A stretch of 63,688 nt of DNA, the filler included, from Reclinomonas americana ATCC 50394 (lineage: Eukaryota): the NCBI GenBank assembly GCA_048213135.1. It is 14 parts of 14 records of this genome, joined end to end, with 100 filler letters (N's around TTAATTAATTAA, not from the genome) between each part and the next. Parts side by side here need not be neighbours in the genome. Positions count along the whole stretch, not along the records: positions 4,177 to 18,480 come from AFZH01020929.1; positions 18,581 to 20,555 come from AFZH01020930.1; positions 20,656 to 21,862 come from AFZH01020931.1; positions 21,963 to 23,925 come from AFZH01020932.1; positions 24,026 to 30,760 come from AFZH01020933.1; positions 30,861 to 37,380 come from AFZH01020934.1; positions 37,481 to 39,260 come from AFZH01020935.1; positions 39,361 to 48,043 come from AFZH01020936.1; 6 more parts are not named here. One strand, 5' to 3'. The position numbers and the translations under genes were made by a program. Shown one piece after another: positions 16,410-63,688 of this stretch. Within the stretch, counting starts at the first letter, position 1; every line of letters begins with the position of its first letter. The notes below the pieces were generated by a model, which made no database searches, was not told where the DNA came from, and saw only the letters and a list, made by a program, of their open reading frames with translations.

Positions 16410-17855
16410 TCAGTCATCGCCGTCGCTGGCAGCACCGGAGCTGAGTTTCCTTCGCTTCCGAGGCACCTGCTCATCCCCGTCGTCGTCATCGGCATCACCG
16501 CCACGAGCTCCACGACTCTTCGACCGACCCGTGAACAGCTGTCGCGTGAACGCACAAGAACAATGAGCTACAGCGCGGGACAGCCAATCGATCGTCGCGC
16601 CCACCTTTTCAAGCAACTCGATGCTGGCTGGACCCTTTTGTCGCTTCTTGCTCTTCTTCGCACCGCTCGGGTTGCCGGGGAGCTTGATCTCGGCCGGCAG
16701 CACAATCGCCTCATCCGCACCAGCAGCAGCTGTCGCCTTTTTCGACGACGCCGCAACGCCATCCACGTCACTGACAATCGCCTTGAGCTGCCGGAACACG
16801 CGACGCACACGAGGCTTGCTGGTGACGCCAGTTTTCTCCGCCTGCCAAACCACCCGCGCACGATGAGTCGGCGAGCCAAGAACGCACACACAGGCTCGCG
16901 CATGCACACGCACTCTTCTCGCTTCCATGGCCTCCACGACCTTGGCCTGCGCCACTTGCTGCAGGTAGTCGTCGTGCTCTCGTCTCGCTGCCTCCACTTC
17001 ATGTCGCATCCGCTGGTCCTTGGCCGCCTGGTCTCGCGCTGTGCATGAGAGGGAGAGAGCGAGAGTGAGAACGGAGACAACTCGCCAGTCGCATGCTGAC
17101 GTCGGCCACTCACCCATGCTCTCCGTCAGGTGCTTCCACGTGAACTTGCGCAGGTACTTGAGGACCCACATGTCGTTGGCCCAGTGGCCGCGCTTCTCTG
17201 CTCACCGCAAACGCCGTCAGCAATGCACGGAGAGATGTCGCGAGAAGCACACCGTGAAACAGCGCACCGATGGGAGTGCCATTCAGAGTGCGCGCCACGG
17301 CCTTGGCCACTCGCTTGTCTGTGAACTCTACCCAACCCTCCTTGTACATGATCTGCGAACAAGCAGAGTGAGCAGGCACACACACGCACGCTCGTCGTCG
17401 TCGTGACATCACACTGCACCTTGCGATTACCACCGCGTTTTAACCGCTTCTCTCGTTCCCGCTGCGTCTCCGGTTCCAGGTACACTCGGTCGACGGTGCC
17501 AAACTCCTCCATTAGCCGCCTCACCTGCAGCAACAAGAAGGCGGTGAGGGCGCAGAGAGTGCTGATTCACATCACCACCGCCATGTACATCGCACACACA
17601 CGCGCGCGCGCCCACAGGAAACGGCGATTGCACGCGTGTGTGTGTGTGGAGAGAGAGAGCAGAGGCTGCTACACAGACACATGCACACGCTTGCAAGGCA
17701 GCCACAGTACCTTTGCTGGCGGAAAGAATGGTGGCAAGTGACCCTGTTTCCCGTGCACAAGCGCAGAGAGACAGAGATGAGGCGACTTGGAGAACACACT
17801 AGGTACATGAGCGCGAAGGGAACGCAACAACATAGACGATTCCGGGCTCGACCAT
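16410..17855 (-). CDS. ESF2: pre-rRNA processing protein ESF2/ABT1
   Basis: MVEPGIVYV|GHLPP..FGTVDRVYLEPE..YKEGWVEFTDKRVAKAVARTLNGTPIG..DMWVLKYLRKFTWKHLTE. Confidence 0.93.
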
Positions 17856-17922
17856 GTCTCGACACAGAGCTTGATTGATGTGAGAAATTTTCGCTTGTTT
17901 TTTCACTCACTCGCTCACTCTC

Positions 17923-18480
17923 ATGTTGCGCTCAGTGCTGGCGCACTTTGCGCTTCTGCTCATCATCGCAGTCGTCGCTGTGCATGCGAGCAACATCGAC
18001 ATGCCCTCCGATGTGCGTCTGAGAGAGTGTATAACACGCACTTCTCACACACACTCACTTACTCACTCTCTGAACTTACACAGACGTGCTACTTGGTGGA
18101 GGATTGTGGCGGCTGTGTGTCGCACTCCAACTGTGGCTGGTGTGTGTTTGGTCACTCGGATAACACCGCCATGTGCAGTTCCGTGCTCTTGTGTGTGTGT
18201 GATTGATTGCTCACACTCCTTCACTACTCACGCTCACACGCGTGCGCGCACACACACAGTGTCGGGCACAGTTGCTGGCCCCGCAAAAGGTGCGTCTGTG
18301 TGTGTGCTCACATGTGCATGCATGCATGTGTGATTGATTGCATTGCTGGCAGGCCTCTATCGATGCCCGGCCAAGGCCTGGAGCTACGGCTCGTGCAATG
18401 GTGGCGGATCCTCCACTGTGCGTGCCCTCCTCCTCTTCTCTCTCCTCTCCTCTCTGTCTCTCTGTCTCTCATGGTGTGTG
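17923..18480 (+). CDS. secreted or membrane protein with a PSI-like Cys-rich domain, 3' partial
   Basis: Signal peptide MLRSVLAHFALLLIIAVVAVHA, then CxxxxxCGGCVSHSNCGWC...CPAKAWSYGSC. Confidence 0.6.
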
Positions 18481-18580
18481 NNNNNNNNNNNNNNNNNNNN
18501 NNNNNNNNNNNNNNNNNNNNNNNNTTAATTAATTAANNNNNNNNNNNNNNNNNNNNNNNNNNNNNNNNNNNNNNNNNNNN

Positions 18581-18890: not shown

Positions 18891-20487
18891 TTACAATGAA
18901 CTTTGCACGGTCTTCCACAGACCGCGCTGCCGCATCTCCTTTTCCTTTTCGGAACCGCGTATCCACCCAGCATGCGAGATCACGCGGCGCTCCTCGGCAG
19001 CGTAGTGCCTGCCTTGGAGTTGGTCGAGCAGGTCGAAGCCTGGCAGGTTGTTGGCCAGTCGACCGTCCACGATCTCCAGCAGCAGGCCTTCGCGCACATG
19101 CAGATCCTGTCAAGAGCGACGTAAGTGACACTCTCGTCGTGGACGCGATCACGGGGGGCGAACGAGCAGCGCACCGCTAGCGTGTTGAACAGCTGTTGTT
19201 CCCAGGTCAGCCGACCCTCCAACCCCCACGACAGCACGTCCACCATCTGCCACCCGAAGCACTTTTCAGCGGCCGCACACATTGCTGAAGAGATAGGCAG
19301 TCGCAACTTGTGCCAGCAGATTAATTACGCGGGCGGTGGGCTGCGCCAACCAGATGCCGGTCGACGCGCAGTACGTGACCGGGAACGTGGGGCAGTACCT
19401 GTACTGCTGCAGTGGACAGTACTGATAGTACATGTACCTGGTGGAAAGAGCGCGAGTCAGGCGCCACACCTCGCTGCACGAAACGATGCGTGCGACACAC
19501 AGACCACGGTCGCCGAATGCGATCCAGACGCGACTTCTGCCACCAGTGTGGGGTGAGATTGCCGTCGAGCACATCGGTAATCATCTGCATCTCGGCCACA
19601 GCCACCGGCGCTCCGCCCTGGTCGTACCAAAAGAGGTGCTGCAGTGGATCCTTGTGCGTCGCCACGTCCAAGTCCAGGAACAGTGCTTGCATGCCGGCGC
19701 GCACGATCGCCAACCCGTACAGCCACTTGATGTTGACGGCCGCCTGCGAAAACTTTTCGGTGAACAGATAGCCCGTCCACCCGATACGATCCGTCCACAG
19801 GTACTCGGCGGGCACGCCACGGTTCTCCAGCGACGAGCACGTGGTGTCATCTGAGCACACGATCAGTGGTTTCATGCCGCGTCGACTTGTCCACGGCAGC
19901 ACCCACTCCAACCAGTTGTGCACCCAGGCATCGTATGTTCTGCGCGCACGACCGCATTAGCTACTCGGAAACGCACACAGACACAGTGAACGGTTGACGA
20001 AACGCCTTGTCGGGATCAATGGTCACTGTGGTGAAGAGCACCACCTTGTCGAGACCGGCATGCTCCTCCAGTCGTTGCAGCAACGCGCTGTCCAGCTGGA
20101 TGCCGTTGGAGACATCCGAGCCAGCAGTCAGCAGCACCTGGCCCGGTGACAGCTGACGCGTGTGGAAATCATTCTCGAGGCGATTGCACTCGGGAAACCA
20201 CCCTGCTGGAGGCATGCCGAGATCCAGCTGCCCGCGTGGCACATGTCGCATCAATGACTGTGCGTACGAGCGATCACAATGTGTGAGAAGCGATGAGTGT
20301 GTGCGATGTGTGTGCGTGCACTCTGACGCACTTGTGTGCTGGTAACATCGCCGTCGATCGCGCCAACGCCTTTTCGCGACCACACCATGACGACGAGCAG
20401 GAGAACAGTGCATAGAGCGATGATTACTAGTGTGCGTCGACGCCTGCCTGTGCCCAAGGTGCGCATCAGCTGCGACACGAGTTGCAT
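18891..20487 (-). CDS. nucleotide-diphospho-sugar transferase (GT77-like), type II membrane protein
   Basis: N-terminal TM anchor (TLVIIALCTVLLLVVMVW), LFLDLDV DxD motif, CASTGIW, EQQLFN, and C-terminal HAGW..G..K..MR..GLW. Confidence 0.75.
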
Positions 20488-24025: not shown

Positions 24026-27000
24026 GTTGCAGGGATACTCGCTTCAGCTGCGCGTGTATGAGACAGCGACACCGTATCGGTGCGATTCTCTTTCCCTTTC
24101 TCCCTCATTCTGCGTCGCGTGTGTGAGGCATTTCCCTCATCGCATCGTGAGTACAGAAATCTCCTCATCGGAGGATGCGAGTTGAGAGTGGAGGACATTG
24201 TGGCTGGGTGTGGCACTGCCGACAAAAAGTGGGTGGCTCTCTTTGCCGACGCAGATACTGGCGATGTAGAAGCGGAGGCCGTCGCAGCTCAGCAGAAACC
24301 GCAGGTGACTCTCATGTGATTTCTCTCGGCTCCACCACTCGCACCGCCTCACATGTTAGAAACGCAGGGCTTTGTGCGTATCACTGTGCTGATCACGGAG
24401 CAGCTGGGAGGCGATGAGCTGTTCATCGACATGCTGGCCGACGACAGACAGGATGCTTCCGAAGTGGCTGACCTCGACATGGACACGCGACTGCAGTGCC
24501 TCAACTCGTCGCAGCTCGCCTTCCACTGGCACATCTTGCACTTTGTTATTCACGAAGCTCGACACATGCCCTACACTGGAGACGGTGAGGCGACGAGTCA
24601 CTTGCACTTCTCACGAACAACTCGCTGATTGATGCGATGGCAGGGCACGACGAGAGCAACGTGGCTGTGGATGTGACGTGGGAGTCCAACTTTGTCTCGA
24701 CGACACCGGTGTTGTGCGTGGACCGTGTGGCAAGTATCAGGCAGCAGCTGAACGTGCCCGTACTGCTGCCACACTTTGTGGACGTGGTGGAGATGCGCGT
24801 TCGTCAGCGCCATTCGGTGCTGGAGAAGATGCGCGCGACACGCATGACCGACATTGAGACGCTGGCTGTGGTGTATTTCAGCGTGGATCAAATCACCTCC
24901 AACCCCCTTGCACAGCAGCCGCACTGGGTGTCACTGTACGGATACCCGCTTGACCAGGCGTGGAGAGAGAGGTGTGTGTCTCTGCGGAAGTCGTGCTGCT
25001 GTGGTGAGTGACACAAATGAGTGACTGCTCTGCAGGCTGTTTCGGCAGCACCATGCTCGCCTAGAGTCCCTGATCGAGGCTCCGATGGAGTACTTCGGTC
25101 AGCTGTTGCTTTCGTTTGAGTCCTCCAAAGATCCGCGACCGCCAAATACGTTGTTGACTGTGAGCGTCGACGATCCCCTGTGACATGCACTCGCACCCGA
25201 TGTGACTCACGTGCGCCTTGCTGTTGCTGCAGAGTACGGTTGACAGAGTGGAACCGATACTGCAACCACGGGAGTTGCCGTACTTTCTGTCTGTGTACAT
25301 TGCACAGGGCATGAGCTTCCCGTCAGGCATGGACCGCGTCATGTTGGAGGTCAGCTGGGGCCACGAGAGAAAACAGTCGTCGTTGCGAAGTACCAGGGTG
25401 TGTTGAGCCTTCATTCTCTTCGCTGTGCGCACACTCTGCATCTCACACTTTGCTGCGCTACACAGCATGGCATCGTGGACTTTAGTGACCAGGATCTATC
25501 ACTACCGGACGTCATGTTTCCGTCGGACCGAGAGAGTACTCCCGACATCTTCATTCATGTGTATGCGGTGCGCATTGGATACCAGAGACGCATCGGCAGT
25601 GTGCGCATGAAGGTGTGAAGTTAACATTCCCGTGGAAGCTTGCATGGCTAGGCGATTTAATGTGTGCACATGCAAACAGGCGGCTGATGTGTGGTTCGAT
25701 CCGTGGGCGTCGCACCTGCGCCACCCAATCGTGTGGATTCCCGTACGCAGCGATCTGCTGCAAACGCAGGAAGACGACATGTCACTGTTGTCGACCGGGC
25801 ATGTGGCACCTGCGTACCTGTGCTGCAGAATTATGTGCGGGCATGCCAGACACTACGGAGCAGTTCCCCCACCATTGCCGCTGTATGCCACGCCGCAGTA
25901 CATGTACGACTTCCGGCTGCACGTCTACCAAGCGCGTGGTCTCTCGGCTGTGCTGGAGTGCGGCTTGAGTAACGCATTCGTGGAAATCAGCTTTGGGTGT
26001 GCCACTCAGAAGCGCACGCGTACCATTCCGCTGTCGCTCTACCCTTCGTGGTTCGAAACACTGCAGGCCGACGTGCTGTTGCCTCGTAACTTGGCCGATG
26101 CGCCGCCTGTGCACATCAATGTTGCGTTTGTTATTATGCAAGGGGTCTCCGTCACCTACACCTCGCTGATGACAATCAACGCAGGTGCTTCACGAGGACG
26201 TGTCTGGTGGTCATCGCTTGCTGCTCGGATCATTCACTGTTCAGGCTGCATCCTTGCCACGACGCTTCTCCGGAACACCGAGTTGGTGAGTGGTGGCGCA
26301 GAACGACAAGCAAGAAAAATGCAAACTCATTTATTCGGCGCTCGCTTGTCTCCTCGCAGGCGCACACTGCAGAGTCATCACAGCACGGGTGCTGGAGACT
26401 TGTTGTGTTCGTTCCAACTGATTCCGGTGGCAGAGGCGCGCCGTATTCGCCTGCCTAAAACCCTGCAGCCGCGCACAGTGGTCAGTGTCATTCACAGCAC
26501 ACTCCTTGCATCTAATGTTGTGTGACCTCACTGTATACCCACCCAATCGCAGCAATGTCGCGTGGAAATCGATGCCATTCGCCTGGTCGATATGAGATCA
26601 TACAGGAGGCATCAGCAGGATTTGGAGCGAGTCGGCGTCAGGAGACCATCGATCGAATTCGAAGTGCAGTGCGATCCGGGCGAGCGCGACCACAGATTAG
26701 CCCCGACTGATGACCCTCCCATTGCGCCCATCACTCGAGTTACCACGCCGACAACAGCCAAGTTTGCACACTTTGTGTTGCAGGTACGTAATCTGCAGCG
26801 ATATCATCATTCGCTTCTGAAGCTTATCGTGCACGCAGAGTATGTCGCTGGAGGCACCACTGCCAAAGAGCGGTCCATTCGAGACTTACTTGAAGGTGCT
26901 CGTGCGCGACACCGTCGACGGCTCCGTAGCAGCCGTGGGGTTTACGCGCCTACGGCACCCTCGTCAACAACACAACGAGGATCACACCGAAGCGGTAGAT

Positions 27001-42551: not shown

Positions 42552-42614
42552 TGTGTGGGAGCGAGAGGATGGACGTGGACAGAGCTCGCTTCGTTGCAAT
42601 CAATCACCGCCCAA

Positions 42615-45341: not shown

Positions 45342-45956
45342 TCATTCGTCCCGTATGCTGCCGCCCAGTTCAGGGTGACGTGCTTCATCCACCAATGCGC
45401 GCAACAGATCCTCACTGTGCGTGTGCACGTGCACGAGTGAGAAACGGAGAACAGCATCAGCAGCCAACAGCCAAAAAAACGACAAGTCCGCACCAACGCT
45501 GCTGATTCTCGGCGACCGAGTCGCACTCTGTCGCCGTAATCGTAATGGTATCCGTGCGTGCATTGTAACGCGAGCCGAGCAGGCCAATCAGCTTGGATCG
45601 CTGCGGCGGTGTGAGGTCAATGTCGTTGGCCTTCAGCTGCGCCACCACCTTCTTCTCGTGCGGATGCCGTGCGCTCGCCGTGTCATAGAACGGGTACTGC
45701 GCGGCAATGAACTCCACTGCCACCGCTGTTGTGCGTAGATGCAGGCGAGTGTGAGTGAGTGCGTGTGTGAAACAGAGGTGGTTGGTGACATGTTGCACAC
45801 ACACACGCAACGACGACGCATTGCGGCGGCGGCTGCGGCGGCGTGCGACATGGGTCGTGTTGCAGCACACAGTGCCCACATGGATGACAGAGGACGAGTT
45901 GACGTCGTCGATGAGGGGGAGAGCGAGGCAGCGAGACGGCCCAGGCGCAGCAGCAT
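45342..45956 (-). CDS. mitochondrial ribosomal protein mS35 (MRPS35/Rsm24)-like
   Basis: Arg/Ser/Ala presequence, then HPHEKKVV..LTPPQRSKLIGLLGSRYNARTDTITI..ENQQR..DLLRALVDEA. Confidence 0.75.
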
Positions 45957-48143: not shown

Positions 48144-48932
48144 CACAGCTACTACCACGGCCTGATCGACCACAACCTGTACGAGTTCCTCACCCAGAAG
48201 CAGTGGCCGCGCTGCAAGCGAGCCATTGCCGCCGGTGAACCCAAGGAGGAGAACCAGGCCTGCAACGGCATCATTGGCCGCATCAAGCGCTCGCACGGCT
48301 CACTCAACGTCTACGACGTCACCAAGCAGTGCCCGCCCAACAATTCGCTGTGCTACGACTTTACGGTACGATGGACAGCTCTGCCGTGATCTTGCGTTTC
48401 GCTCTCTCTCACCACCCCTCGTTTTTTTTCACAGCCGGTCTCACGCTACCTGTCCATTCCGGCCGTGCGCGAGGCGCTGCACGTGGACGACAACGCGCCG
48501 CGCTGGAAGCCCTGCAACCTGCGCGTCCACCGTCAGTTCTACAAGGACTGGTGGTCATCACAGGTGAAGGAGGTCACCCAGATTCTGCGCGAGCTGCCGG
48601 TCCTGTTCTACAACGGTGCCGACGACTTCATCTGCAACTTTGCCGGCACCGACAGCTGGCTGCGATCGATGGAGTGGGAGTACCAGGAGGACTTTAGGCG
48701 AGCGCGTCGCAATCCGTGGAAGGTCGACGGTGAGACCAAGGGTTTCATGAAGCGTGCCGACAACCTGCGCTTCTTGGTCGTCTTCAACGCGGGCCACATG
48801 GTCCCGATGGAGTTGCGTTCGTATTCGATATCCACTTCACCGCGCGATTTGCTCACGTTGGTGATTGCATACAGCCAACCTGTGGTTGCCCTGGAGATGT
48901 TCCGCAGCTTCATCTACGGCGACATGCAATAA
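48144..48932 (+). CDS. serine carboxypeptidase (S10), C-terminal part
   Basis: NVYDV, VREALHV, WKPCN, VLFYNGADDFICNFAG (catalytic Asp), VFNAGHMVPM|DQP (catalytic His). Confidence 0.93.
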
Positions 48933-49849: not shown

Positions 49850-51682
49850 TCATGTGTATCTGGCCAGCTGCTTCACCGCCTCGATGAGATCGTCATCGTC
49901 GGGGTTGAACAGACGCCCGATGCGGTACACGTCGGCAGCGGCGTCGTACTTTTTGAGCACAATCAGCGGCGCGGCCTTGCGAATGTAGCCCTGCGCACAC
50001 GCACACACACATGTTAATGAAAGTGAGAGACGAGACGCGAAATGAATGCATGCCGACCTTGGGCCACCACGGGTTGATGCGCAGACTCTCGTCGGCCTCC
50101 TCAATGGCACGCGGATAGCGCTTCATGTTGAAGTGGCAGAGCGAGCGGTTGCCGTACAGGGACTGCGCAGCACGACACAGAAAAAAACGTGAGCGAGCGA
50201 GAACCCAGTCGTCACACCACGTCATGGGGCACGCAACAAAGTTCTCCGGCGCCAGTTGCGTGGCTTCCTCGTAAATGGCCAGCGCCTGCTCGTACTTGCC
50301 CTCCTTGACGAGGTTGTTGGCACGCAGCTTCATGTCATTCGCCTGCAAACCACAATCTCACGCTGCTCAGCAATCGCTCTGCTATCTCGCTTGCACGACA
50401 AGATACGCACCGTTCGCCAGCGAGACTCGATCGCCGCGCCTGTCTCACCACGAATCGTGCACTCGAGGAGAGCACGCTCGCACGTCCTGTGCGCAGACAT
50501 TGAGAAATGTGAACACATGAGAGTATCTCGGGGAGTACGGACGCAACGAGTGACTGGTGGCCCGCGCCACATCAAGCGGCGTCTCCAGGTCATTGTCGAA
50601 TCCAAATAGCCTCGGAGCCGCCTCGAGCGTGGCCAGCCACTGCAGCGCCTCGACGTTGCCGGTGCCGGCGGCCAAATGCATCGCGGTGCCGCCGCCACGC
50701 ACTCGGTGTTCCACATTTGCTCCGGCCTCCAGCAGGAAGCGCGCCATGTCCAGCTGACCGGTGACTGCATCCGACTGTAAGGCGAGCAAGCAGGCAGGCA
50801 CGCTACTAGAGACTGAAGGCAACACCCGCACCAATGGCCGCATGGAATGGTCTGAGACCATTCGAGTCCGTGACATTGACATTCGCACCGGCCTCCAGCA
50901 GCTTGCGCATCGTCTCCACATCGCCGTCGCTGGCAAACTTGAACAGCGGGCTCCCATTATCCTGCTGCACGCGACCCACGTCGGTCATACGCGCACCGGA
51001 ACGCAGCAGAAAGTCGACCACATCAACACCCATGTGCATCGCTGAATGAACGAGAGAGATATATCAGTGACTGCATGCCCTTGCCATTCGCCCCTCTCCC
51101 GTCGCACAGACCAGCGTGATGCAGCAGGCCACACGGGTCGACTTTGGAGACCAAGTTCAGGTCGGCGCCTTGCTCCACCAAGAACCGCAGCGCTGCCTCG
51201 CTCTCACAGATCGCCGCAACCACAATCGCCGAGTGCCCCAGCTGCATCATCGACATCATCACACACAATGAGTCTCTTCTCTCTCAATGTGAGTGTCTGT
51301 CTCTGCACTGTCGCCACTTCGACTCAACATGATCCTGCTTATCGATATCCGCGCCACGCTGCAACAAGAAGCGCAACACCTCCACGTGATCCATGTGCGC
51401 CGCAAAGTGCAACGCAGTGCGTCCTCGCCCATCTCCCTCATCAATCAGCGCACTCCGCGACTCGGCACTCACGTCGTCGCCCAGCAGCTCCACCAGAGTC
51501 GCCATGTCACTGAGCGCGTGCAAGAGTGAGCGCGTGTGACTGACAATGTCGCCCTCTCTCTTCCGAAACTTGTCCTTGGCGGCTGTGAGCAGGCGGACTA
51601 CCTGTGGGCGGATCTCCACCTGCGTCACCTCGCTCTCGTCGATGGTTTGCAGCACGGGCGCAGAGGAAGCAGCAGCGCTCAT
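49850..51682 (-). CDS. ankyrin-repeat + C-terminal TPR protein
   Basis: GRTALHFAAH, SPLFKFAS, GLRPFH, GTAMHLAA, ETPLDVA ankyrin repeats; then ANNLVKEGKYEQAL..LYGNRSLC..WPKGYIRKA TPRs. Confidence 0.9.
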
Positions 51683-51745: not shown

Positions 51746-53421
51746 ATGTCGAGCCTGCACTCCACAGTGGTGACTGTGGCCGGTGCCAGTGCGGGCTTTG
51801 GTGCGCGCAATGCACACTGCTGCCACACAAACCTACGCGCACACACACTCACTCTTCGCGAACAGGCATCGGTGGATCAGTGCTCATTATTGTTTCCTAT
51901 GTGCTTATGCGACGACTACGGTGCACCTCCCTCTCCCTCTCTCTTAAAGAGTGACACACACTATTGTTTGCTGATGCTCCCTTCTGCGCGCAGATATCAC
52001 GCCAGTCGGCTTGTGCTGATGCTGGCGATTGCTGACTTGGTCGATGGTTCGTTGTCTGTCTCTTGCACTCTCTCTCTCACGCTGATCGTTTCACGCACCT
52101 CTGCTTCTCCAGCGGTTGGTTGGATGCTTGGTCTGTCATTACCGGAGACGCTGCAAGTGAGCACGCCTCTGTGCAAGTTCCAGGCGAGTCTCATCCAGCT
52201 CGGCGGATTCAGCTCGCTCATCTGGCAGGTCGCCCTCAACGTCACCATCTGGTGTGTGCGAAGAGAGAAGACACACTGGGTGTGTGTCTCTGTCGCTCAC
52301 GCCACAGTGTGTGCAGGGCCACGGTGGTCTACAAGAAGACGGGAAAGTTCTTCAAAATGGAGGTCGCCTATCACATCATTGCCTGGGGGTTCGTCGCATC
52401 AACCCGTTCGCTCATTCGTCCTCGGCAATGCAGTCTGCTTCTCACTCTCCCTCTCCCTCTCTCTCACACACGCACACTCATGCCACAGAATTCCTGTGAT
52501 CATGACCATCACGCTGTTGGTGCGTATTTGCGTCTTCTCTCTCTCTCTGCGCCTCTCGCTCTCCGCCGTTCGCCGTTCTTTCTGATTCACGGCGTGCAGG
52601 CTGACAATGACTTTGGGCCGGTGGGCAACGGGTGCTGGATCATAGGGCCGCGGAATGTGTTTCGATGGGCGTTCGGATATGGCTTCCTGTTCGGAGTTGC
52701 GTGTTGATGTCTCCGCGCGCGCGTGTGTGCGCGCCTGCCTGCCTCCCTCATTGCATGCTTCTGTTGTGGTGCAGACGTTTATCATCAATCTCATCTTCTT
52801 GGTTCTCATTGCTCGGTGCGCTGGCCCCCTTCTGTCGTGTTTCGCTGCGCGCTGCGCGGGAATCGTGCTCATTGCTTTTGCAACAGTGGTCTGTCAAGTT
52901 ACCGACGGCAGTTAGCCAAGTCAATCAATACGTACACCTCCCACAAGCAGTACCAGGGCAAGGTGGCAAAGCGAATGATCTTTTACGTTGCGCATGGCCA
53001 CACTCTATCCAGCTCACCTCGTGACGCACAACTCACGTGGCTCTTCATCGTGACAGACGGTGGTCTTTGTGTTTATCTGGCTACCGGGTCTCACCGTTGC
53101 GCAATGCGTTGCTGCGATGTGTGTTCTTCCTGGCCGCAGCGTTGTTGGTGCTGACGACTTGTGTGCAGAATCGAATCTACGAGGCCATTAATGACGACCA
53201 TCATGGCATTGAGTTGCGTCCTCCCTGTGTCGTCGCCATTTTTATCAGCGTATGGCTCATCGTTTGCATCCACAGGTGGCTTTTCTATTTCCAAGCGGTG
53301 CTGGAGCCGAGTTCTGGGTTCGTCACTCACTTCTTCACCTTCTCTCTCTCTTCGCTCTCGCACCAACATCACTTCACAACAACAGGTTCTGGAACGCACT
53401 CGTGTACGCCATCACACAAAA
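51746..53421 (+). CDS. cAMP-receptor/GCR1-like 7TM GPCR, 3' partial
   Basis: Seven hydrophobic segments; RLVLMLAIADL, LCKFQASLIQ, YHIIAWGIP, GNGCWI, RMIFYTVVFVFIWLPG, GFWNALVYA. Confidence 0.85.
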
Positions 53422-53521: not shown

Positions 53522-56500
53522 AACTGACCCCGCATTTCTCGCGCTTCTTGCACACCATGATTGAGGCCGTCAATGACGCCGTGCGGCACTGCATCCGCGA
53601 GCTGGGGGTATGTGTCACTGCATTCGCTGCGCGCGCGTGTCTGTGACTGATCGCATGTGCCAGGGACGAGCCATTGAGTTCGTCGATCTGATTCACGATT
53701 CGTTCGTCGTCGAGGCGCTGCCACCAGTCCTTTGCGCTGTGCACTTCCTGACTGCGGAGAATCGCGGTGACTTTGGCGGCATGATGGGCACTCTGGCCGA
53801 CATGTGTGAGCTCTTCCACAAGTTCTCCTTGCTGCTCGCCCCGGCCGCCCCCGCCGAGCCGACGACGTATGCAAGCGAGCACAAGTTGTGTCCTGCGTCA
53901 TTTTTCATGCCCTGATCTCGTTGGTGACAAGTCTCATGTGGTGGTGTGTCGCCGACACAGTTATGCGTTGAACACGGACGCCGAGTGGCATGCCAGCTTC
54001 CCGGGTGCACTGGCACTCGTGGTGGCGTTCTCCCCGAATTGCAGCACTGCGCGCAGGTGAGTTGTGTGCCGCCGTGCTTGCCTTTCGGTCACCTTGCTAA
54101 TTTTGCCCCCGTAACAGTGATCACGTGCTGCGCTTGTTCACCAAGCCTGGTCGCGACATGAAGCACCAGTGCGAAGTCGGTGACATTTGCCTCACACGGT
54201 TCCCCGACAAGCCCTTCCATGTCGCCGGTCACGAATTGTACGTCCACTTCCACACCTCGGGCGAGGGCGAGCCGTCTTGGGGCTTTGAGTTGCGTGCGCT
54301 GGCGGCAGTTTTCTCTTTGCCCTTGTTTTCGTATTTGACGGTGTGCGAGTGCAGGATGAAAGTCACGCCCGTGTACGAGCGCTTCTTCAGCTCCATCAGT
54401 CAGTTTTTGTGTGCGACTGTGTGCAAGGTGAACAGCGATGCATGTAGCAGTGCGTCGAGTGCACACACGCGCTAACCCTCTCGTGCATTTTTTGTTGCAG
54501 CTCACGGCTCGTGCATTCGGCACGCGTCACTTGCCGCCAGCAGCGAGCCTTCTCACACCGTGGCTCCATTCGCTTGTCTTTAAGAACGGCCGACAGGTAA
54601 GGAGAATAAGAAATGGCTTGTTCTCAGCTCTCGTGCTTCGTGCGTAACATGCACCACCACCGCTGCACGCAGAGTCTCGGACCGCAAGACGAGTTCCTGC
54701 GCCGACTGTACCAGGGTGATGCGGAGGTGGTGGCATGGTTCGACTCGACGCTGTCGTCGAAGAATGTCGACGCGAAGCAGATGAAGAACAAGGAGAATGG
54801 TGCGTTGCTGACGCCTCTCATCTGCGCTGTTTGGTGTCACTGTGCTGATGTCGTTGAGGGACGCAGTGAACATGCTGGTTCGCGGCCTCTTTGCTGTCTT
54901 CCTCAAGCACTGCCATGCCGTCCACACGGCCGAGGAACACTTTGCGGCCACGTCATCTGGAAGCACGTTTGCGTTGTCGACGCTGGACGCCGGCGCGGTG
55001 GCCGACGTCACCGCGCTCGCCAACCGCGCTCACAAGCTGCGAGTGTTCCTCAACCAGCAAAAGGGCGCACACCCTCTCGGCAACGAGCTGTCAGCGTTGC
55101 GTCCGTCCGGATTTGTTCTGGTTCTTTTTTTTGCGCTGCTGATTTGTGTTTTGTGTGTATGTGCGCGCGCTTAGTGACGCACTGCTGGAAGCTGTGTGCG
55201 CGCCGATCCGACCGCGCATTGAGCTGCTGTTGGAGACAAAGCCGTGCCAGATCAACGTGGTGGAAGCCATGAGCCCGCTCACCCCCGTCACGCCAGGCCT
55301 TGCCGCCGGTGGCTTTGGGAGTGGCGAATTCCTCAAGCTGCAGCGTGCCATTCGTGGACTAAAGGTCTCTCACGTGCATGACATGCGCGCCTTCCTTCAG
55401 CCGCCGTCGCCACTGACACATCTCCTCTTTTCTGTGTCTGTGTGTTGCCGCAGGCCACCGGCACCAGCTCCCGCAGCCAGATGCNNNNNNNNNNNNNNNN
55501 NNNNNNNNNNNNNNNNNNNNNNNNNNNNTTAATTAATTAANNNNNNNNNNNNNNNNNNNNNNNNNNNNNNNNNNNNNNNNNNNNGGGGGGGGGCGGTAGC
55601 TCGTCGAGTGTCTCATTCGCAGTGCATGCACTCGCAGATTACCGATGTGACGGGCGGCATTCGCACCGTGGACGATGCGCTGCGTGCCGGACTGGCGTCA
55701 GAGACAGCCGACGGCAGCTTCTTGTCGCGACGCGCGTCGCTCGTTCTCTTCGAGCTGATTCTGTCGTGCATGGAGCACTTGAGCTCTGACACGATGCTGC
55801 ACGATGCACATGCACTTGGTTCGTTGTGCTGTCCCAAAACACTGATGGCGCCTGTGTACTTACTCAACCCGATCTCTTCCCCCATCCGCCACAGCCTTCC
55901 TGGACAGCCTCATCAACATCCTGTTTGGCCAGCTTTCTCGCGCTTGCGAGCTGTTGGCGATGATTGGCGAAGGCGAGTGTCCGCCCAACGTCAAGGAGTC
56001 TCTTAATCTGGAGGTGCAGTGCCCTGCTCTGTGGATTGCTCGCCTGTTTGTTTGTACAAGTTGCTCACTTGATACACCACAATTGCGACGCGCAGATGGA
56101 GCACATTGTGTCGTTGCTGCATTGCTGCATCGAGCGCAGTGCACACCCCGGCGTGGCTCCCGACGCCGGCGAGTTGGCGTCACCTGCACCCACGCCGACT
56201 GGCACGCAGTGGCTGATGAGCAACGAGGAGCGACTGTCGGTGCTGTTCCACATCCTCCAGACGGGCTTCCTGCGCAGTGAAATCATTGGCCTGTTGCAGG
56301 CGTGGTTGCCGAAGTCGCAAGGTACATTTGGGTGTTGATTGTTTTTCGGCCTTTTGTTGCCTTGCTCACTCGTGCTCATCATTGTCATTCGCAGCGGCGC
56401 ACGTGTTGAGCGCTCTCCAAGTCAGCTCCGACTCGCCTGTCCCTGGTTCCGGGTCTGCCTTCATCGATCCCGTGCATCGTGTCATGGAGCACTTTGTCCG

Positions 56501-59500
56501 ACTCATCGGTCGCGGCCACCCGTTGTGTGCATTGGATCTGTGCGGCTCGTCAATGCCGACGGAGATCATGGACATGGCGCAGGACTCATTGCGCATCTTG
56601 CGCGGTCTGTGTGTTTGTGTGCATCTGGTGCGTGTTGGCGCACGTAGGCGGCGATCTGAACGTCGTTCCATTAACAGGAATGTTGCAACGCAAATACTGG
56701 CGCATTCCTGCGTGTGAATACATTGGCGTCACCCTCGACGAGGTGAGTCGTGTGTGCAAGTCTCAGAACCACTCATCACATTGTCCCACGCTGACTCGTA
56801 TCTCGGTAAACAATAGACGCTGCGCCTTGTGGAGAGTGCTGTGGCCAGTGGAGCAGAGGACCTGGCGATCACGAGCAGTGCGCACGCGGCACAGCTGGAG
56901 ACTGCTCTGGGACTATTGAGTTTCCTCGGTGCGTGATTTGAAGCTTGCCGCTGCGCTGTGCGTGGCGTGTGTGCAAGTGCTTACAACTGTGTCTGCAGGC
57001 GGTAGCACGCCCATGTCGCGCACGCGTGCTCTCATCTCCGTGAACGGAAGTGGAGCTCACATGATTGACGAGATTGTCAGCGACAGCATGAACGTGTTTA
57101 TGCATTCGACTCTGAGTCAGGAGAAGGCCTCGTGGGACAATGTGCGAGTGCAAGAGGAGGTTTGCGGAGCCTATGCCGTTACAATCCTTTGCAGGTTTCC
57201 GCTTTGCTCAATCTCCTCGCTGTGTAGCGTCCTGTGGTTCTTAGCGTGTTCGACTCGCTGCCCAACTTCCTTCCTTTCGTGCAACGGCTCATTCAGCTGT
57301 ACCTCCAACACACGGAGCTGTTCACCAAGACGCGTATCTTGGGTGCGCTCATGTACACCGCCATGCGGGCCCTGTCCGCCAGCACGCTGTCGCCCAGTGT
57401 CGTGAAGCAGCTGGCCAAGCGAGGTTTTTTTCTTGTCGCGTCGATCCCTCACTCTCTCTGCGCACAATAGAAGGCTAACAGTTTGGATGCAGAGTATCTG
57501 CTCGCCGTTCTCAGCTACGTGCGACACGGCAAAGTTGCGGTGGTCAGTCTGCCGGCGTTGGAGGACCGCTTGCAGGTGCTTCTCCACGTTTTGCGTACCA
57601 CGTCGACTGGGTCTGTGGACGCTGCAGCTGGTGAGCTCTCCATGCCGGATTGGAGAAATCAGCACCACTTTTCTCATTGTCCTCCCTGGTGCCTGCACGT
57701 GCAGTGGAACCGACGGCCGAATTGGACCTGTTTGAAGACAAGTCAGGCGAGGAGGGCGCGGTGGCGCTCACTACGCTGCCGTGGAACGACATTGAGGTGC
57801 TGTATCGTCACCCACCCACCCACCCTCCCTCCCATCGTCGTGACCACTGACTTCTGTGCTGTACAGACGCGTTTCGAGGCCGAAATCGCATCAGCGGTCG
57901 CAGTCATGCCCGCTGGCGCCAATGCGGCCTCCGATCAAGACAGCGGCCCGAAGAAGCTGAAGCTGCTGACAAAGGTGCATGCACGCGGTCGTGCCCTGCT
58001 CGGTACGTGCACGTGGACGTGTACAGGCTCACCAGCCGATGTTGAAGACCACCGCCCTCATTTCCCGCTCACAGGCCCCGTGTTTGAGCTGTACCGCTCG
58101 CTTTCGGCGCTTTACGGAGCTACTTGCGTGGCCCGCATGTTCGACACTGCCAACGTTGAGTTGGAGAGCGTCGACGAGGAAGTGGTCNNNNNNNNNNNNN
58201 NNNNNNNNNNNNNNNNNNNNNNNNNNNNNNNTTAATTAATTAANNNNNNNNNNNNNNNNNNNNNNNNNNNNNNNNNNNNNNNNNNNNTTTTTTATTTGCG
58301 ACGGATGAGACACGCTGGCAATATTCTGGGCGCTTACACTGTGTTTGTGTGTTGTAGGTGTATCGCGGAACCCTGAGTGTGCTGCTGGAATTCGGCACTC
58401 ATGAGCAGCTCAACTGGAAGTTGCCGGGCACTGGAAAGTCGATCCGAGAGGCAGCTGCGAACACGGTGCTTGGCGATCTAATCGAAGACAGTTGAGTTCT
58501 TCTTTTTATTATTGATGCTCGTTGTAATCTGCAGCGAGAGCTGATGCTGTGGGCGGGGATTTTTTTCATGCAGCCGTGGTCATGTGTGGCCAGTCGGACG
58601 ACGAAGTGGGTGTACGTGCCTCCGGCGGCGATGCCGTTGCGCGAGCCATTCTGCGAGCGCGTGAGTTGCCGGATTCTGTGTGCCGCGAAGAAGTTGACGG
58701 TGTGCGCAGACTTGAGCATGCCAGCTTGTTCAGCGCACACTCTCTGACATTGTGTCTTTTTTTGCAGTCATCGAGGTTGGATCGCTGAAGCAGTTCCAGA
58801 CCGTGTTCTTGGAACGCAACGGCAAGGTGGAACCGCACACTGTGCAGAGAATCTACCACGATGGCCTGCTGGCCGCGGTGCGTCCGGTCGAGGGAGCCGC
58901 CAACCGCGACGTGGTGTATCTGCCGCTGACGTCGCGCAGCATTGCACGTGTTGTCGAGAATGGTATGCGCCACCCGCCATTCTGTCGAGCGCATGTGGAC
59001 TTGGGGCGATGACACGTGTGTGCTCTTTTGCAGACCCCGTGCAAAATTTGCTCGAATTCCGCAAGTTCTGCGTGGCCCTCCTCTCTGGCCACGTGCTGCC
59101 GTCGCCAATGGTGGCCGAGCACGCTGTCGCGGATTCTGTCGTGCCTTTGCAGTTGCCGACTTCAAGACGTTCGACCACACCGCTGGACTACAGGTGTGTA
59201 TCCGTCCCGTGTGCCCCGTCTTTGCTCGTGTGGATGCACTCATCGACTGTGTCGGACGTGCAGGATCCCGCTGGAGGTATTTGCGTACCTCAAGTCGACC
59301 ATCAGTTCCTACTCGTCGACTCGCAATCTCTCGATCGACGCTCTCAACATCCACGAGGTGCCAATCGACCTGGAGGAGCACCAGCTCTTGCAGCAGGTGC
59401 GCAAGTGTTGCCGCCGCCACAGTTGGCATTACTTGTGTCTCACGCATGGCGCGCAGATGTCGAATGCAGTGCTTATGCAAAATCTCGAGTCCATTCGACA

Positions 59501-61382
59501 GCTCAACCTCAACTTTAACAGTCTGTTGCCGTTTGTCACTGCGGTGGACATGGGTGAGTTCGGGTCGTACATTCTCCTGCGTCGTCTGCATCTCTCCTCA
59601 TTGGTCGATGTTTGCAGGCCCCATGTCGGTGCAGTCGTCCATGTCAGTTCTGCCGCCGCCCACAGATGAGGACGGTGGCAGCGGCAGCGGCAGCGGAAGT
59701 GGCAGTGGTTTGTGCTCGTCGTTTCGTGAGAGAGAATGTCAAGTGTGCTCATCATTCTTCGTCATCCTCGCAGCTGTCGTGCAGTACTCTACGGCGCAGC
59801 TGTGGTCGTACGCTGTGCGTTACCTGATCGTGGACAAGGTCAAGACCGAGTTTGTCAGCAAGGTGCTGCGAGAGACGGCTGTGGACGAGCGACCAGTAAT
59901 TCGTGTCAATCGACCGCGCGCTCTGCGACACATGAGAAGTCACGTTGCCTCGCGGTCATTGTTTGTGTGTGTTTCTCGACGTTGTTGCTGACGTGCATGG
60001 TGTTGATGCATAACAGATCCGGCCAACGACCCCGACGGTCGCAACTCGCTTTTCGCGCAATGCATGGAGCAGCTGCTCTCCAAGGGACTGAAGCGCATGG
60101 AGAAATCGTTCAAGGTCGAGTTCCAGGGCGAAGGTGCCGAAGATGCAGGCGGTCCCTACCGCGAATGCTTGGCCCTGATCTCCGACGAGCTCATGTCCGA
60201 TGCCGTGCCACTATTCTGTCAGGCGCCAAATGGTATCTTGCGTGCTGCCACTGGTCGTGGATTAAGTGACTGACATATTTGATGGCAGGTACCGATAATG
60301 TCGGACAGCATCGCGAGACCATGGTCGTGCGTCCTTCAGCGTGCACCGAGTATCACCTGCGCATGTTCCGCTTCCTCGGCAAACTCATGGGTCTGGCAAT
60401 GCGAACAAACGACTGCCTCAGCCTGCGCATCAATCCTGTTGTTTGGAAGCAGCTGGTGCGTGTCTCCTAGTTTTTGTCGCCGTCTGTGTTTCTTGATACT
60501 GAGTGTCATTGTGTTGCACATGTCACAGGTCGGCGAGGCGCTTACTCGTGCCGACTTGGCACTGTGTGACTTCCGTGCGGCGCAAAACTTGGATCGTCTC
60601 TCGCAAGCGTCGCCACTGGTCGGCTCCACGGACCTCACCTTTGCCGTGGCGCTGTCTGACGGTTCGACTCGCGAGTTGCGCGACGGAGGCTCGGAGATTC
60701 GCGTGACGTTGCGTTTTTCTGTCATGGCTTTGCTGCGATGTGGTTGGTGTGTGTGTTGGTATCTCACATGTGCGACAGTGCCGAGAATTGCATGGAATGG
60801 GCCCTGTTGTACGAGCGTGCACGGCTCTCCGAGTCGAGCAGGCAAGTGGCTGCCATTCGCGACGGTCTGCTGGAGGTCATTCCCTCGTCCGTGCTATCCA
60901 TGTACACGTGGGATGAGCTGGAGGCGAGCATTTGTGGCCGACCAGATTTCGAAGTGGCGGTGCTGAAGGAGCGAGCGTCGTACGAAGGCTACACTGCCGA
61001 ATCCGACCAAATCCAGTGGCTGTTCCAGGCACTCGAGTCGTTCACGCCTCGCGAGCGCTCCATGTTCTTGCGCTTTGTGTCTGGTATGGCACGCCTGCCC
61101 AAGTACGCTTCGCGGAACTTTATGTTCAAGCGTGGCGCACAACGAGGTGAGTTTTTCTGGCACCTCCTGTGTGTCACACGGTCGTGTTGCTCATGTGCTT
61201 TCTGTTTGCTTGCAGATGACTCTTTGCCAACGGCCGCCACATGCTTCTTCTCCATCACGCTACCGAGATACTCAACGCGGGAGATTCTCACCGAAAAAGT
61301 GCGGTACGCCTGCACTCACTGTCTGGCCATTGATACGGACTACACGGCACAGAATGCTGACGTGTTCTCCAACGAAGACTGA
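53522..61382 (+). CDS. giant HECT-domain E3 ubiquitin ligase (HERC/HECTD4-like), 5' partial, spans two linkers
   Basis: C-terminal HECT: FKVEFQGEGAEDAGGPYRE, FRFLGKLMGLAMRT, ELEASICG, FLRFVSG, LPTAATCFFSITLPRYS..CLAIDTD. The upstream contigs are on the same strand; assigning them to the same gene is inference. Confidence 0.85.
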
Positions 61383-61496
61383 GGCAGCCAGTAACANNNN
61401 NNNNNNNNNNNNNNNNNNNNNNNNNNNNNNNNNNNNNNNNTTAATTAATTAANNNNNNNNNNNNNNNNNNNNNNNNNNNNNNNNNNNNNNNNNNNN

Positions 61497-63688
61497 GCCA
61501 TTAGACTTTGGCAATGTGCCGATGCTGGAGTGGAGACGCGCGATATGTGCTGATATTCTCAGCGTCGAATGTCGCATGTTCCCTCTCGACCACACGTACC
61601 ACTCGTCCAGATTGCGCGAATGAAATGCACAACATAACACATGCAGAGTGCGTGAAACCCGAGTACATTCATTCTGTGGATTGTTGAAGCTAAAGGAAAG
61701 GAACGAGGGAAGGGACACAAAAATAATCAGCGCTTGTCGGCGAGACGTGGAGAGGAGGAGAAGAGGCGGGGAAAAAAGAGAAAGAGAGACAGGCAATTAC
61801 ATGTGCAGTGTGTGCAAAGCGACAGACAAAATAAGCACATCCATGATCATTATGATTGGGTATTGCGTCGACCGCGACGAGCTGGAGACACACACACAGA
61901 GATCGTGAGAAGCAGGAGAATCAAGGTGACGGAATAAATGGACTCACAAGAAGCGGATGCCGCGGAACCGCGACGCCGTCGTTTCCTCTGGGGCGCTGCG
62001 CAGGAAAAGAAGATCGACAGGTTGGCACGAAAAGGAGAGACGAACTTCTACAACACCATCACCCAGGCTCACCGCTGCCGTCCCCTTCATCACCATCGTC
62101 ATCATCGTCGCCACCTCGGTCGTCCTCCGAGTGACTAAAGTGATCTCGCAGGTCTCCGGCGTCGCTACTAAAAGCACGCTTTCGCGAACCGTTGCCAAAG
62201 CTGCCAGGCTCCTCGCCATCGCCATCACCCTCAGCCTCGTCATCCTCGTCGGCGACCGCATACTCATCATCATCGTCCTCCTCATCGTCGTCGTCATCTT
62301 CGCCGTCGACTTCGTCCGCAAAGCCGGCGCTGAAACTTGAATTCTTTCGGCGCGGTCGCGACGATCGTCGCATGGGGACACCAGATCGCGCTTGCAACAG
62401 TCGCGCAAAGAAGGATTCTGTGTGACAACAACTGATGTCAATAACCTCGCGTGGGTCGATTATGTGGCGATCAGTCTCTCTCCACTCACCATCCACCATG
62501 CCGGCGCCAAAATCAATCGGCTGCGATGGCGGCGGGCACAGACTCGGCAGCATCTGGCACATGAGGTCGACCATCACCTGCTGCTCGATTGCTGCATCGC
62601 AGAAGCACGAGGTGAGCAACATATAAAAACACGCACCTACGGCGGCACGACACACAAAGTTACGCAACTCGGCAACTCGGTGACTCGACGGAAGAACTCA
62701 AAGCCAGCACGAATGCGCTGTCCCGGCGACAAGCGCGCCGGTCCTGAACCGAATGACTGCAGCAGAGATGCTGCACGACGGACACGCGAGATGAGCACAG
62801 TCACACAGCAGATGAAAGAAGCCTCCTGCAGACATCCACCCACCTCGGCTGTCGTCCTCGTGCATACTCGGCAGGCTACTGATGCTTCCGTGACGACCAC
62901 GGTCGGCGTTGACAAAGTGTGCCACCTTTTGCGACTGTGCAATTCCTGGGTAGGCGGCAGCACTCGCATTGACAGGAGCCGGCGGTGGTGGTGGTGGATG
63001 TGGCAGCGGGAGCGCTGCCGGCGACGTCGTGTTCTGCGGATACCCGTAGAATCCGCCAGCTGACGCACTCATGTCGCTGTTCATGACGGGCGGCAATGGC
63101 GGGGCCGAGGGCGGCGGTCCAGTAATCGGTGGGCCCACAAATGTGCCCGGGCTGTGATTGGTCGCAAACGGCATGCCACCGCCGACAAACTGCGGCGCGC
63201 CGGCCATTGGCAGCGGCGACACCCCAGGCGACGTACTTGACATGTTGGGCGGTCCACCAGCGCCACCCGCCATCACTGGCATACTGTACACTGGCGAATG
63301 CGCGGGTCCGCCCATCTGACCCGTGCCAGACGACGACGAGTACATCGTCGACATTCTCGGCCCGCGCGTCGATTCCTGCGCACGAGGTGGTGTGAGAAAG
63401 TAAATGATGGAGAGGCGAGAAAGGGGTGTGAAACGCACCTCCTCCAGCAGCCGCCGCTTCATGTTCTTGGTGACGTACACGTGCTCTTGGTCCTCCTCTG
63501 CGGCAGGGAACGGGAAGTGAGCAACAAAAAACCAAGGGATATCATCAGAACTCTCTCTCAACGCAACTGTCCGGCACACGCGCATAGATTTCGTACTCGG
63601 GGGAGTAGCACATCGCAATTGCGGGCTCGTGCAGCGCACCATTGACATCGACGCAGAACAAAGTGAGGCAGAACTTGAATCGCGGCTT
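61497..63688 (-). CDS. hypothetical multi-exon protein, both ends partial
   Basis: Spliceable exons KPRFKFCLTLFCVD..CYSPEYEIYARVPD|KEDQEH.., a Pro/Gly/Met-rich region, ..VTELP|TIEQQVMVDLMC.., an acidic tract and RKRRRR. Confidence 0.55.

Follow-up and report, generated by a model that had tools for sequence, protein, structure and literature searches.

The stretch of DNA analysed here (the window) comprises 63,688 nucleotides (nt) of eukaryotic nuclear DNA, filler included, from Reclinomonas americana ATCC 50394, with about 57% G+C; all counts refer to this one window of about 64 kb. Its genes are densely packed on both strands and are interrupted by many short introns, of median length about 68 nt. 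Pfam assignments of single exons identify genes for DNA polymerase delta, RPL30, eRF1, a proteasome alpha subunit, an S10 carboxypeptidase, an ankyrin/TPR protein and a HECT ligase, and further for mS35, a TFIIB/BRF1-like protein, a B9 ciliary protein, Med25, a C2-domain protein, a CoA transferase and a ketoacyl synthase. How do the introns of these genes begin? We distinguish canonical donors (5′ splice sites), which have G at intron position +5, from offset donors, which have G at +6 and T or C at +3. At the level of predicted donors, the analysis shows that the offset class exists, is frequent and excludes exons ending in G.

A gene finder without a donor model, later re-trained, merged neighbouring genes, missed RPL30, a presumed G-protein-coupled receptor (GPCR) gene and ESF2, and misplaced donors at 11943, 12505, 39505 and 48899. 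We therefore used a signal-first census with a control, together with homology. Even in the gene finder that lacked a donor model, the top donor hexamer was GTTGCG. The census called introns from splice signals and open frames, exon positions being excluded from the scoring. It was self-trained, its donor table slightly favours the offset class, and the reversed sequence served as its control. In total 122 introns were called, against 10 in the control, where not a single call was made at GTTGCG. The final table combines the census with the sites of an earlier reading, made from the sequence alone, minus 8 rows with strand or decoy conflicts. Junctions were also checked by Pfam searches on the flanks of 68 segments, 14 of which gave matches; for most genes (the GPCR, the C-terminus of BRF1 and the upstream part of the HECT gene among them) these searches placed no domain at the junction.

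The sequence-only reading had listed 24 donors of a class displaced by one base, and had proposed that the class recurs in unrelated genes on both strands and always follows A, C or T. Each of the 24 proved to have the motif, position and strand assigned to it, and all 24 follow A, C or T. Twenty read N/GTTGCG (the slash marks the exon–intron boundary); the exceptions are 39490 (GTTGTG), 58491 (GTTGAG), 59939 (GTCACG) and 42713 (GTCTCG). With 21 additional offset donors the total comes to 45 sites, in about 17 genes on both strands. The donor class as observed is confirmed at this level, and its interpretation, a displaced class that recurs in unrelated genes on either strand and is confined to exons not ending in G, is supported by the predicted junctions. 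To call it a genome-level rule is to extrapolate from one 64-kb window.

The 45 offset introns follow, with coordinates, strand, donor and length. ‘Signals and frames’ stands for splice signals and open frames in the census, ‘listed’ for a site of the sequence-only reading and ‘new’ for one absent from its list.

5262..5335, minus, C/GTTGCGT, 74 nt; signals and frames; new
6857..6922, minus, A/GTTGCGC, 66 nt, with an in-frame alternative T/GTCACGC at 6940; listed; frames open for both donors
8336..8399, minus, T/GTTGCGT, 64 nt; listed; signals and frames
8710..8760, minus, T/GTTGTGT, 51 nt; signals and frames; new
8874..8944, minus, A/GTTGCGT, 71 nt; listed; signals and frames
9895..9962, plus, polymerase delta, T/GTTGCGT, 68 nt; needed for the open frame of 1143 residues; flank poorly conserved
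11710..11780, plus, polymerase delta, C/GTTGCGT, 71 nt; alignment with 10 homologs, free of insertions and deletions
12220..12282, plus, polymerase delta, C/GTTGAGT, 63 nt; homolog alignment; open frame
13353..13415, plus, polymerase delta, A/GTTGCGA, 63 nt; alignment free of insertions and deletions
13704..13775, plus, polymerase delta, T/GTTGCGT, 72 nt; alignment free of insertions and deletions
13847..13913, plus, polymerase delta, A/GTTGCGT, 67 nt; homolog alignment
13946..14011, plus, polymerase delta, C/GTTGCGT, 66 nt, ends GTAG; homolog alignment; open frame
16094..16161, minus, C/GTTGCGT, 68 nt; signals and frames; new
17744..17828, minus, ESF2 of the sequence-only reading, T/GTTGCGT, 85 nt, GIVYV/GHLPP; listed; sequence and signals; flanks too short for Pfam
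19247..19307, minus, A/GTTGCGA, 61 nt; signals and frames; new
19474..19534, minus, candidate variant with C at +3, A/GTCGCGT, 61 nt; signals and frames only
19940..20003, minus, variant C/GTTTCGT, 64 nt; signals and frames
26121..26184, plus, C2-domain (ferlin-like) gene, T/GTTGCGT, 64 nt; listed; signals and frames; C2 domain in the upstream exon
29229..29299, minus, BRF1-like gene, A/GTTGCGA, 71 nt; listed; signals and frames
29651..29718, minus, BRF1-like gene, C/GTTGCGT, 68 nt; listed; signals and frames
32022..32096, minus, proteasome alpha-1, T/GTTGCGT, 75 nt; signals and frames; upstream exon ends at residue 232 of 1iru_F
32446..32525, minus, proteasome alpha-1, variant C/GTTTCGT, 80 nt; residues up to 138 and from 139 of 1iru_F
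39490..39571, plus, eRF1, A/GTTGTGT, 82 nt; listed; residues up to 182 and from 183 of 1dt9_A
41497..41568, minus, possible variant T/GTCTCGT, 72 nt; signals and frames only; strand conflict with one gene chain; weak
42713..42775, plus, possible variant A/GTCTCGT, 63 nt; listed; signals only
43943..44029, plus, T/GTTGCGA, 87 nt; signals and frames; new
45726..45811, minus, mS35 (MRP-S28) gene, C/GTTGCGT, 86 nt; listed; MRP-S28 match in the downstream exon, outside the junction
46849..46928, plus, RPL30, A/GTTGCGC, 80 nt; listed; HYAG/NNIDLG as in the relative P0040; Pfam coordinates
48812..48874, plus, S10 serine carboxypeptidase, A/GTTGCGT, 63 nt; listed; Peptidase_S10 match up to the donor
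49991..50036, minus, variant C/GTCTCGT, 46 nt; signals and frames
50163..50237, minus, ankyrin/TPR gene, T/GTTGCGT, 75 nt; listed; TPR period across the junction
50487..50547, minus, ankyrin/TPR gene, C/GTTGCGT, 61 nt; signals and frames; new
51242..51328, minus, ankyrin/TPR gene, T/GTTGAGT, 87 nt; signals and frames; ankyrin repeat ends at the donor
52696..52774, plus, GPCR of the sequence-only reading, A/GTTGCGT, 79 nt; listed; signals and frames
52987..53056, plus, same GPCR, C/GTTGCGC, 70 nt; listed; signals and frames
53096..53168, plus, same GPCR, C/GTTGCGC, 73 nt; listed; signals and frames
53213..53275, plus, same GPCR, A/GTTGCGT, 63 nt; listed; signals and frames
53885..53960, plus, A/GTTGTGT, 76 nt; signals and frames; new
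54289..54354, plus, upstream part of the HECT gene, A/GTTGCGT, 66 nt; listed; signals and frames
55096..55174, plus, C/GTTGCGT, 79 nt; listed; signals and frames
58491..58573, plus, A/GTTGAGT, 83 nt; listed; signals and frames
59939..60016, plus, possible variant with C at +3, A/GTCACGT, 78 nt; listed; weak signals; gene model chose another donor
60708..60778, plus, HECT domain, C/GTTGCGT, 71 nt; listed; downstream exon starts at HECT profile position 137; upstream exon without match
62592..62668, minus, A/GTTGCGT, 77 nt; listed; signals and frames
63498..63567, minus, A/GTTGCGT, 70 nt; listed; signals and frames

Two donor classes and the last base of the exon

What distinguishes the two classes? 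The canonical donor, G/GTGCGT, has G at +3 in 64% of cases, C at +4 in 47%, G at +5 in 100% (by definition) and T at +6 in 83%. The offset donor, N/GTTGCGT, has T at +3 in 93%, G at +4 in 85%, C at +5 in 88%, G at +6 in 100% (by definition) and T at +7 in 80%. The GU remains at the cut and the rest of the consensus is displaced by one base in the 3′ direction, positions +3 to +6 of the canonical donor corresponding to positions +4 to +7 of the offset donor. Among the 45 offset donors, 32 read GTTGCG, including 24 with the full GTTGCGT; the others are GTTGAG, GTTGTG and GTTTCG, together with a few candidate forms with C at +3. About three quarters of the GTTGCGT heptamers in the window (24 of 32) lie exactly at predicted donors. 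The sequence-only reading had also suggested that a few donors insert C in place of T; those at 59939 (GTCACG) and 42713 (GTCTCG) are plausible by splice signal and remain candidates.

The last base of the exon separates the classes. In the final table, 50 of the 67 donors with G at +5 follow G, as against none of the 44 offset donors (Fisher p = 3.5e-17). This comparison, of the -1 base with donor class across the census introns, bears out the confinement of the class to exons not ending in G. The census itself gives the same picture: of the 70 donors with G at +5, 53 come after G, 6 after A, 5 after C and 6 after T, and the 41 offset donors follow A (15), C (15) or T (11), with none after G (Fisher 5.6e-17). 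Offset introns account for about one third of the introns (7 of 18 in polymerase delta; 44 of 121 in the census).

No G/GTTGCG donor had been noticed in the sequence, and none emerged here, all five such sites in the window being exonic, antisense or intergenic. That at 51220 (minus) lies within an ankyrin-repeat exon; those at 22062 and 30137 (both plus) are antisense to minus-strand genes; that at 21755 (plus) falls between two minus-strand gene models; and that at 28559 (plus) is coding read-through, judged from its sequence context. The remark that unshifted donors after A, C or T mostly have the full motif was fair: 9 of 17 read GT[GA][CA]GT and 15 of 17 have T at +6.

Does the partition appear when the donor itself is left unscored? 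For a donor-independent test we looked for a good acceptor and length signal 45-130 nt downstream, which is found at 17% of all 8526 GT sites. Such a signal follows GTTGCG in 12 of 24 cases after A, 7 of 30 after C, 10 of 25 after T (29 of 79 for the three together) and 1 of 5 after G. For GTGCGT the counts are 23 of 32 after G, 6 of 26 after A, 1 of 21 after C and 3 of 44 after T (10 of 91 for the last three), and for GTGAGT they are 14 of 31 after G as against 4 of 50 after the other three bases. As a word, GTTGCG is only mildly in excess (84 occurrences as against 69.6 +/- 8.05 in shuffles, 3 of 100 of which reach 84), so that the signal lies in the position of the word rather than in its count.

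The codons at the junctions are also informative. Among phase-0 introns, the last codon before the donor lacks a synonym ending in G (Phe, His, Asn, Asp or Tyr) in 10 of 18 offset cases as against 5 of 31 canonical cases (Fisher 0.0086). The enrichment of such codons indicates that the offset form appears where the protein forbids an exon-end G.

In other respects the introns of the two classes are alike. Their median lengths are 68 and 70 nt (p = 0.26), and both have an RCAG acceptor and a YTNAY motif about 19-20 nt from the 3′ end; the comparison excludes a length, acceptor or branch motif peculiar to the offset class. The intron bodies share no sequence. An all-against-all blastn search gave 22 non-self matches with E < 1e-3; the ten listed were of 14-22 nt, apart from two overlapping eRF1 candidates that match each other; a mobile, introner-like family was accordingly rejected. 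U12-type introns are marked by an extended, conserved donor ([AG]TATCCTT-like) and by a branch site of their own. Here the donors are GTTGCGT-like, the acceptor and branch features are those of the canonical class, and a U12 type was rejected. With length, acceptor and branch motif in common and no sequence shared, the offset introns are not a separate type of intron, nor do they form a mobile family.

The acceptor is unusually rigid throughout the census introns, with C at -3 in 94-99%, a purine at -4 in about 97% (RCAG/) and little pyrimidine tract. Two polymerase delta offset introns end in GTAG (at 11780 and 14011). GC-AG versions of either class showed no excess of 3′ signals over the 17% background. 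Many introns contain runs of (GT)n or (TG)n, for example 8874-8944 (minus), 39490-39571 (plus) and 45726-45811 (minus), and these runs inflate the counts of non-donor GTGTGT and GTGCGT words.

Junctions fixed by homology

Are the offset donors placed correctly? Homology supports eleven offset junctions, which lie in six genes and on both strands. Of the remaining 34 of the 45 sites, 30 rest on splice signals with open, coding-like frames on both sides, and 4 are sites of the sequence-only reading that fall under the census thresholds.

The richest case is DNA polymerase delta. Removal of 18 introns leaves one open frame of 1143 residues with no stop, and over residues 69-1139 the spliced product shares 54% identity with a polymerase delta from a mollusc, molluscs providing the best matches. 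When the spliced model is aligned with ten homologs, the junctions at 11710, 12220, 13353, 13704, 13847 and 13946 show neither insertions nor deletions. Two further donors were set from the sequence, at 11931 and 12481, after insertions had appeared in the alignment at earlier calls. Seven of the 18 donors read GTTG[CA]G and all seven follow A, C or T; 10 of the 11 others follow G (Fisher 0.00025).

Spliced at 46849, RPL30 reads HYAG/NNIDLG, letter for letter as in its relative P0040, and the Pfam coordinates are concordant. The closest relatives are two environmental proteins, P0039 (84% identical) and P0040 (80% identical); the best named matches reach at most 61%. P0039 is an unspliced open reading frame, in which the homology to RPL30 stops at the same residue and continues with S-F-V. 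The frame extends across the two introns on either side of the same exon, so that this relative has its introns at the same two positions. Its S-F-V read-through implies, at the orthologous intron, a putative offset donor A/GTTT[CT]GT. This implied donor, deduced from protein, suggests that the offset rule may not be confined to this genome.

The eRF1 exon that precedes 39490 stops at residue 182 of the human chain 1dt9_A, and the next begins at residue 183 (KHRR/GGQS). The sequence-only reading had chosen this donor, A/GTTGTG, correctly; the gene model, with an in-frame T/GTTGCGG 15 nt downstream, was wrong. The interval 39490-39510 (plus) thus holds two in-frame donors of the offset type 15 nt apart, A/GTTGTGT, which is used according to homology, and T/GTTGCGG. 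A second tandem pair of the offset type lies at 6940/6922 (minus), 18 nt apart. Both pairs may serve as alternative 5′ splice sites, the choice between which would add 5 or 6 residues. This eRF1 has a divergent C-terminal part (exon 39893-40255, plus; a single longer homolog, with 38% identity), while its GGQ domain 2 is well conserved.

Three further genes supply one junction each. In proteasome alpha-1 the exons around 32525 (C/GTTTCGT) map to residues up to 138 and from 139 of chain 1iru_F; the exon after the other intron of this gene, 32022..32096, had no match in the search of solved structures. In the S10 peptidase the Peptidase_S10 profile match extends to the last residue before 48812, and splicing gives GHMVPMD/QP. 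In the ankyrin/TPR gene the 34-residue TPR period continues unbroken across the junction at 50237.

How the offset donor may be read

How might one splicing apparatus serve both classes? With modest confidence, we favour the view that these are ordinary short GT-AG spliceosomal introns sharing one recognition word, G-N-T-G-C-G-T, which is cut at its first GT and read by the U1 small nuclear RNA (snRNA) in a shifted register. After an exon ending in G the intron would start with GTGCGT or a near variant, and after an exon ending in A, C or T with GTTGCGT. Both forms would contain the same word. With G as N the cut would fall after the first G of the word and with T as N before it, in each case at the first GT. 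In early recognition U1, with its C9 on the first G of the word, would bind both forms in the same register. The cut site would be fixed later, at the GU, so that in the offset form recognition and cleavage would be one base out of step. An exon that the coding sequence bars from ending in G could in this way still offer a G. That U1 is the reader, and that its register is shifted rather than bulged, we infer. The two consensus strings are identical but for their displacement by one base, of which a shift is the simplest account.

Several observations weigh against this interpretation. The use of the sites is supported by homology at 11 of the 45; the other 34 depend on signals and open frames, or on the sequence-only reading alone. 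The census was self-trained (with 10 control calls to its 122) and gives TGCGT its top donor score, which may inflate the share of the class. With the standard (human) 5′ end of U1, from which the organism's own U1 may differ, the duplex with A/GUUGCGU has an energy of -1.2 kcal/mol, as against -1.4 kcal/mol for A/GUGCGU, and that with C/GUUGCGU or U/GUUGCGU has +0.5 kcal/mol. As the offset form has no advantage in these energies, U1 affinity alone fails to explain why exons not ending in G have 44 offset and 17 unshifted donors, and affinity for a standard U1 5′ end is not supported as the explanation. Within the offset class GCG (32 of 45) prevails over GAG (3 of 45), though standard U1 pairs better with GAG (-5.6 as against -1.2). 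Nor does the -1 base of the offset class mirror the -2 base of the canonical class: if the two were equivalent, G should occur in about 17% of cases, and none is seen. Taken together, the energies, the preference for GCG and the mismatch between -1 and -2 indicate that simple U1 affinity is not the whole explanation. A re-tuned or second U1, later steps involving U5 or U6, or a protein may contribute.

Could U1 instead bulge the extra base? In a bulged-U register the +1 G and +2 U would pair with U1, and later with U6, one surplus U (at +3 or +2) would bulge and pairing would resume at GCGU. A U beside another U is free to bulge at either position, and the few candidates with C at +3 (GTCGCGT, GTCTCGT, GTCACGT) fit a bulge better than a shift. 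A register of this sort, bulge +2/+3, has been established in human, where 68 of the 5′ splice sites are predicted to use it in the portion of Tan et al. (2016; PMC4856993) cited here. Such a duplex, however, pairs the exon-end G as well as +1 G and +2 U around its one bulged U. Exon-end G would still face C9 and should occur at least as often as in the canonical 50 of 67, but it is absent from the class (0 of 44), and its absence favours the shift over the bulge. Moreover, +3 is T in 93%, and the variants with C there are candidates by signal. We consider a bulge unlikely.

Might U1 itself have changed? If its 5′ end, or that of a second variant, were complementary to GUUGCGU (with G/C opposite +4/+5, say, and A for C at position 8), the offset donors would be its true consensus. 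The prevalence of C at +5 (88%) and of GCG over GAG (32 to 3 of 45) is unlike what the standard ACUUAC core predicts. In hypothetical duplexes, GC at positions 5-6 lifts both classes, and with A added at position 8 GUUGCGU becomes the best (-13.4 kcal/mol). The same A8 variant, on the other hand, binds G/GUUGCGU as well as A/GUUGCGU (-12.7 as against -13.4), which leaves the absence of exon-end G unexplained. Such a U1 is purely hypothetical and, to our knowledge, the 5′ end of U1 is very widely conserved. This, too, seems improbable.

It is quite unlikely, in our estimation, that there is no U1 shift at all and that GTTGCGT is a second consensus which compensates for the missing exon-end G at a later step (the U6 ACAGAGA or U5 loop 1, or a protein), a form of the known anticorrelation between exonic and intronic signals. 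The cited parts of Parker et al. (2022, preprint) and Artemyeva-Isman & Porter (2021) report, for human and other eukaryotes, that the exon-end G and positions +5 to +8 compensate for each other, and the absence of a preference for the offset form in the U1 energies accords with it. Against this, the consensus strings are identical save for the displacement, for which a shift is simpler, and we identified no specific later-step pairing that prefers the extra U. That the GTTGCGT words are not donors but an artefact of gene modelling is very improbable: the first gene models were noisy at donors and 34 of the 45 sites are without homology support, but homologs or solved structures place 11 junctions to the residue, 24 of 32 heptamers coincide with predicted donors and the reversed control is free of GTTGCG calls.

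A broader proposition may be entertained, which we regard as doubtful at present. Across the whole genome of this lineage, the place at which the 5′ splice site is recognized may have become independent of the place at which it is cut, G-N-U-G-C-G-U being bound in one register and cut at whichever GU it presents. One intron in three would then be processed in a register otherwise described only for rare, atypical sites. The change may accompany a 5′ end of U1 re-tuned to place G/C opposite the core GCG, or the presence of a second variant of U1.

Known registers and neighbouring features

The cited portion of Tan et al. (2016; PMC4856993) establishes shifted and bulge +2/+3 registers for human U1. 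The shifted register of Roca & Krainer (2009) is described and re-measured there, the bulge +2/+3 register of Roca et al. (2012) is tabulated, and the validated non-canonical registers together make up 1.5% of 201,541 human sites. As in the human shifted (+1) register so described, the offset intron starts with GU and the rest of its consensus is displaced by one base in the 3′ direction; its +1 G would stand in for the exon-end G, and cleavage would remain at the GU, uncoupled from recognition. The human form, however, is rare and has an AAGUAU core, whereas here about one third of the window's introns are involved and the core is UGCGU. Unlike the human form, the class here is strictly tied to an exon end other than G, and standard-U1 energies do not favour it. 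With the bulge +2/+3 register as tabulated the offset donors share a GUU followed by a displaced consensus, but that register keeps the exon-end G pair, and here exon-end G is found in 0 of 44.

Pairing of a weak exon end with a strong intron start marks the anticorrelated 5′ splice-site classes treated in the cited parts of Parker et al. (2022) and Artemyeva-Isman & Porter (2021), and is found here as well: a missing terminal G is compensated by a stronger or special intron start. Those classes appear to share one common register, whereas the compensating class here lies one nucleotide further on and hardly varies (24 of 45 read GTTGCGT). Registers of both kinds, shifted and bulged, are known already, as is the compensation of a missing exon-end G by the start of the intron. 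In a limited literature search we found no published report of a genome in which an offset donor forms a large and almost uniform class that depends strictly on the last base of the exon.

Textbook accounts of 5′ splice-site recognition assume a single register, with shifted and bulged registers as exceptions that account for some 1-2% of human sites. If about one third of the introns of a genome were offset, with a nearly invariant donor, and cleanly partitioned by the last base of the exon, that genome would offer a natural system for learning how cleavage is fixed independently of U1 binding. It would bear also on why the exon-end G is so conserved and on how coding constraints shape splice signals. 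There is a practical consequence, too, in that gene finders trained on one donor profile will misplace such junctions, as happened here at eRF1, the S10 peptidase and polymerase delta.

A few features of the window remain to be described. It contains 13 identical joins, each of 44 N, 12 bases and 44 N (1144 N in total), several of which lie inside genes and break gene models. They are at 4077-4176, 18481-18580, 20556-20655, 21863-21962, 23926-24025, 30761-30860, 37381-37480, 39261-39360, 48044-48143, 53422-53521, 55485-55584, 58188-58287 and 61397-61496. An Rfam scan of the window gave 0 matches. The exon 18594-18818 (minus) has a weak match to the HVSL/USB1 family, the U6 snRNA 3′-end phosphodiesterase (E = 2.8e-05, under the curated cut-off). 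The B9-C2 ciliary gene occupies 41705-42551 on the minus strand. The gene finder wrongly ran a plus-strand chain (39367-45174) through this region, and as a result 4 minus-strand introns (41089 to 42464) are among the 8 rows dropped from the final table. The presence of the B9-C2 gene indicates that the organism builds cilia or flagella.

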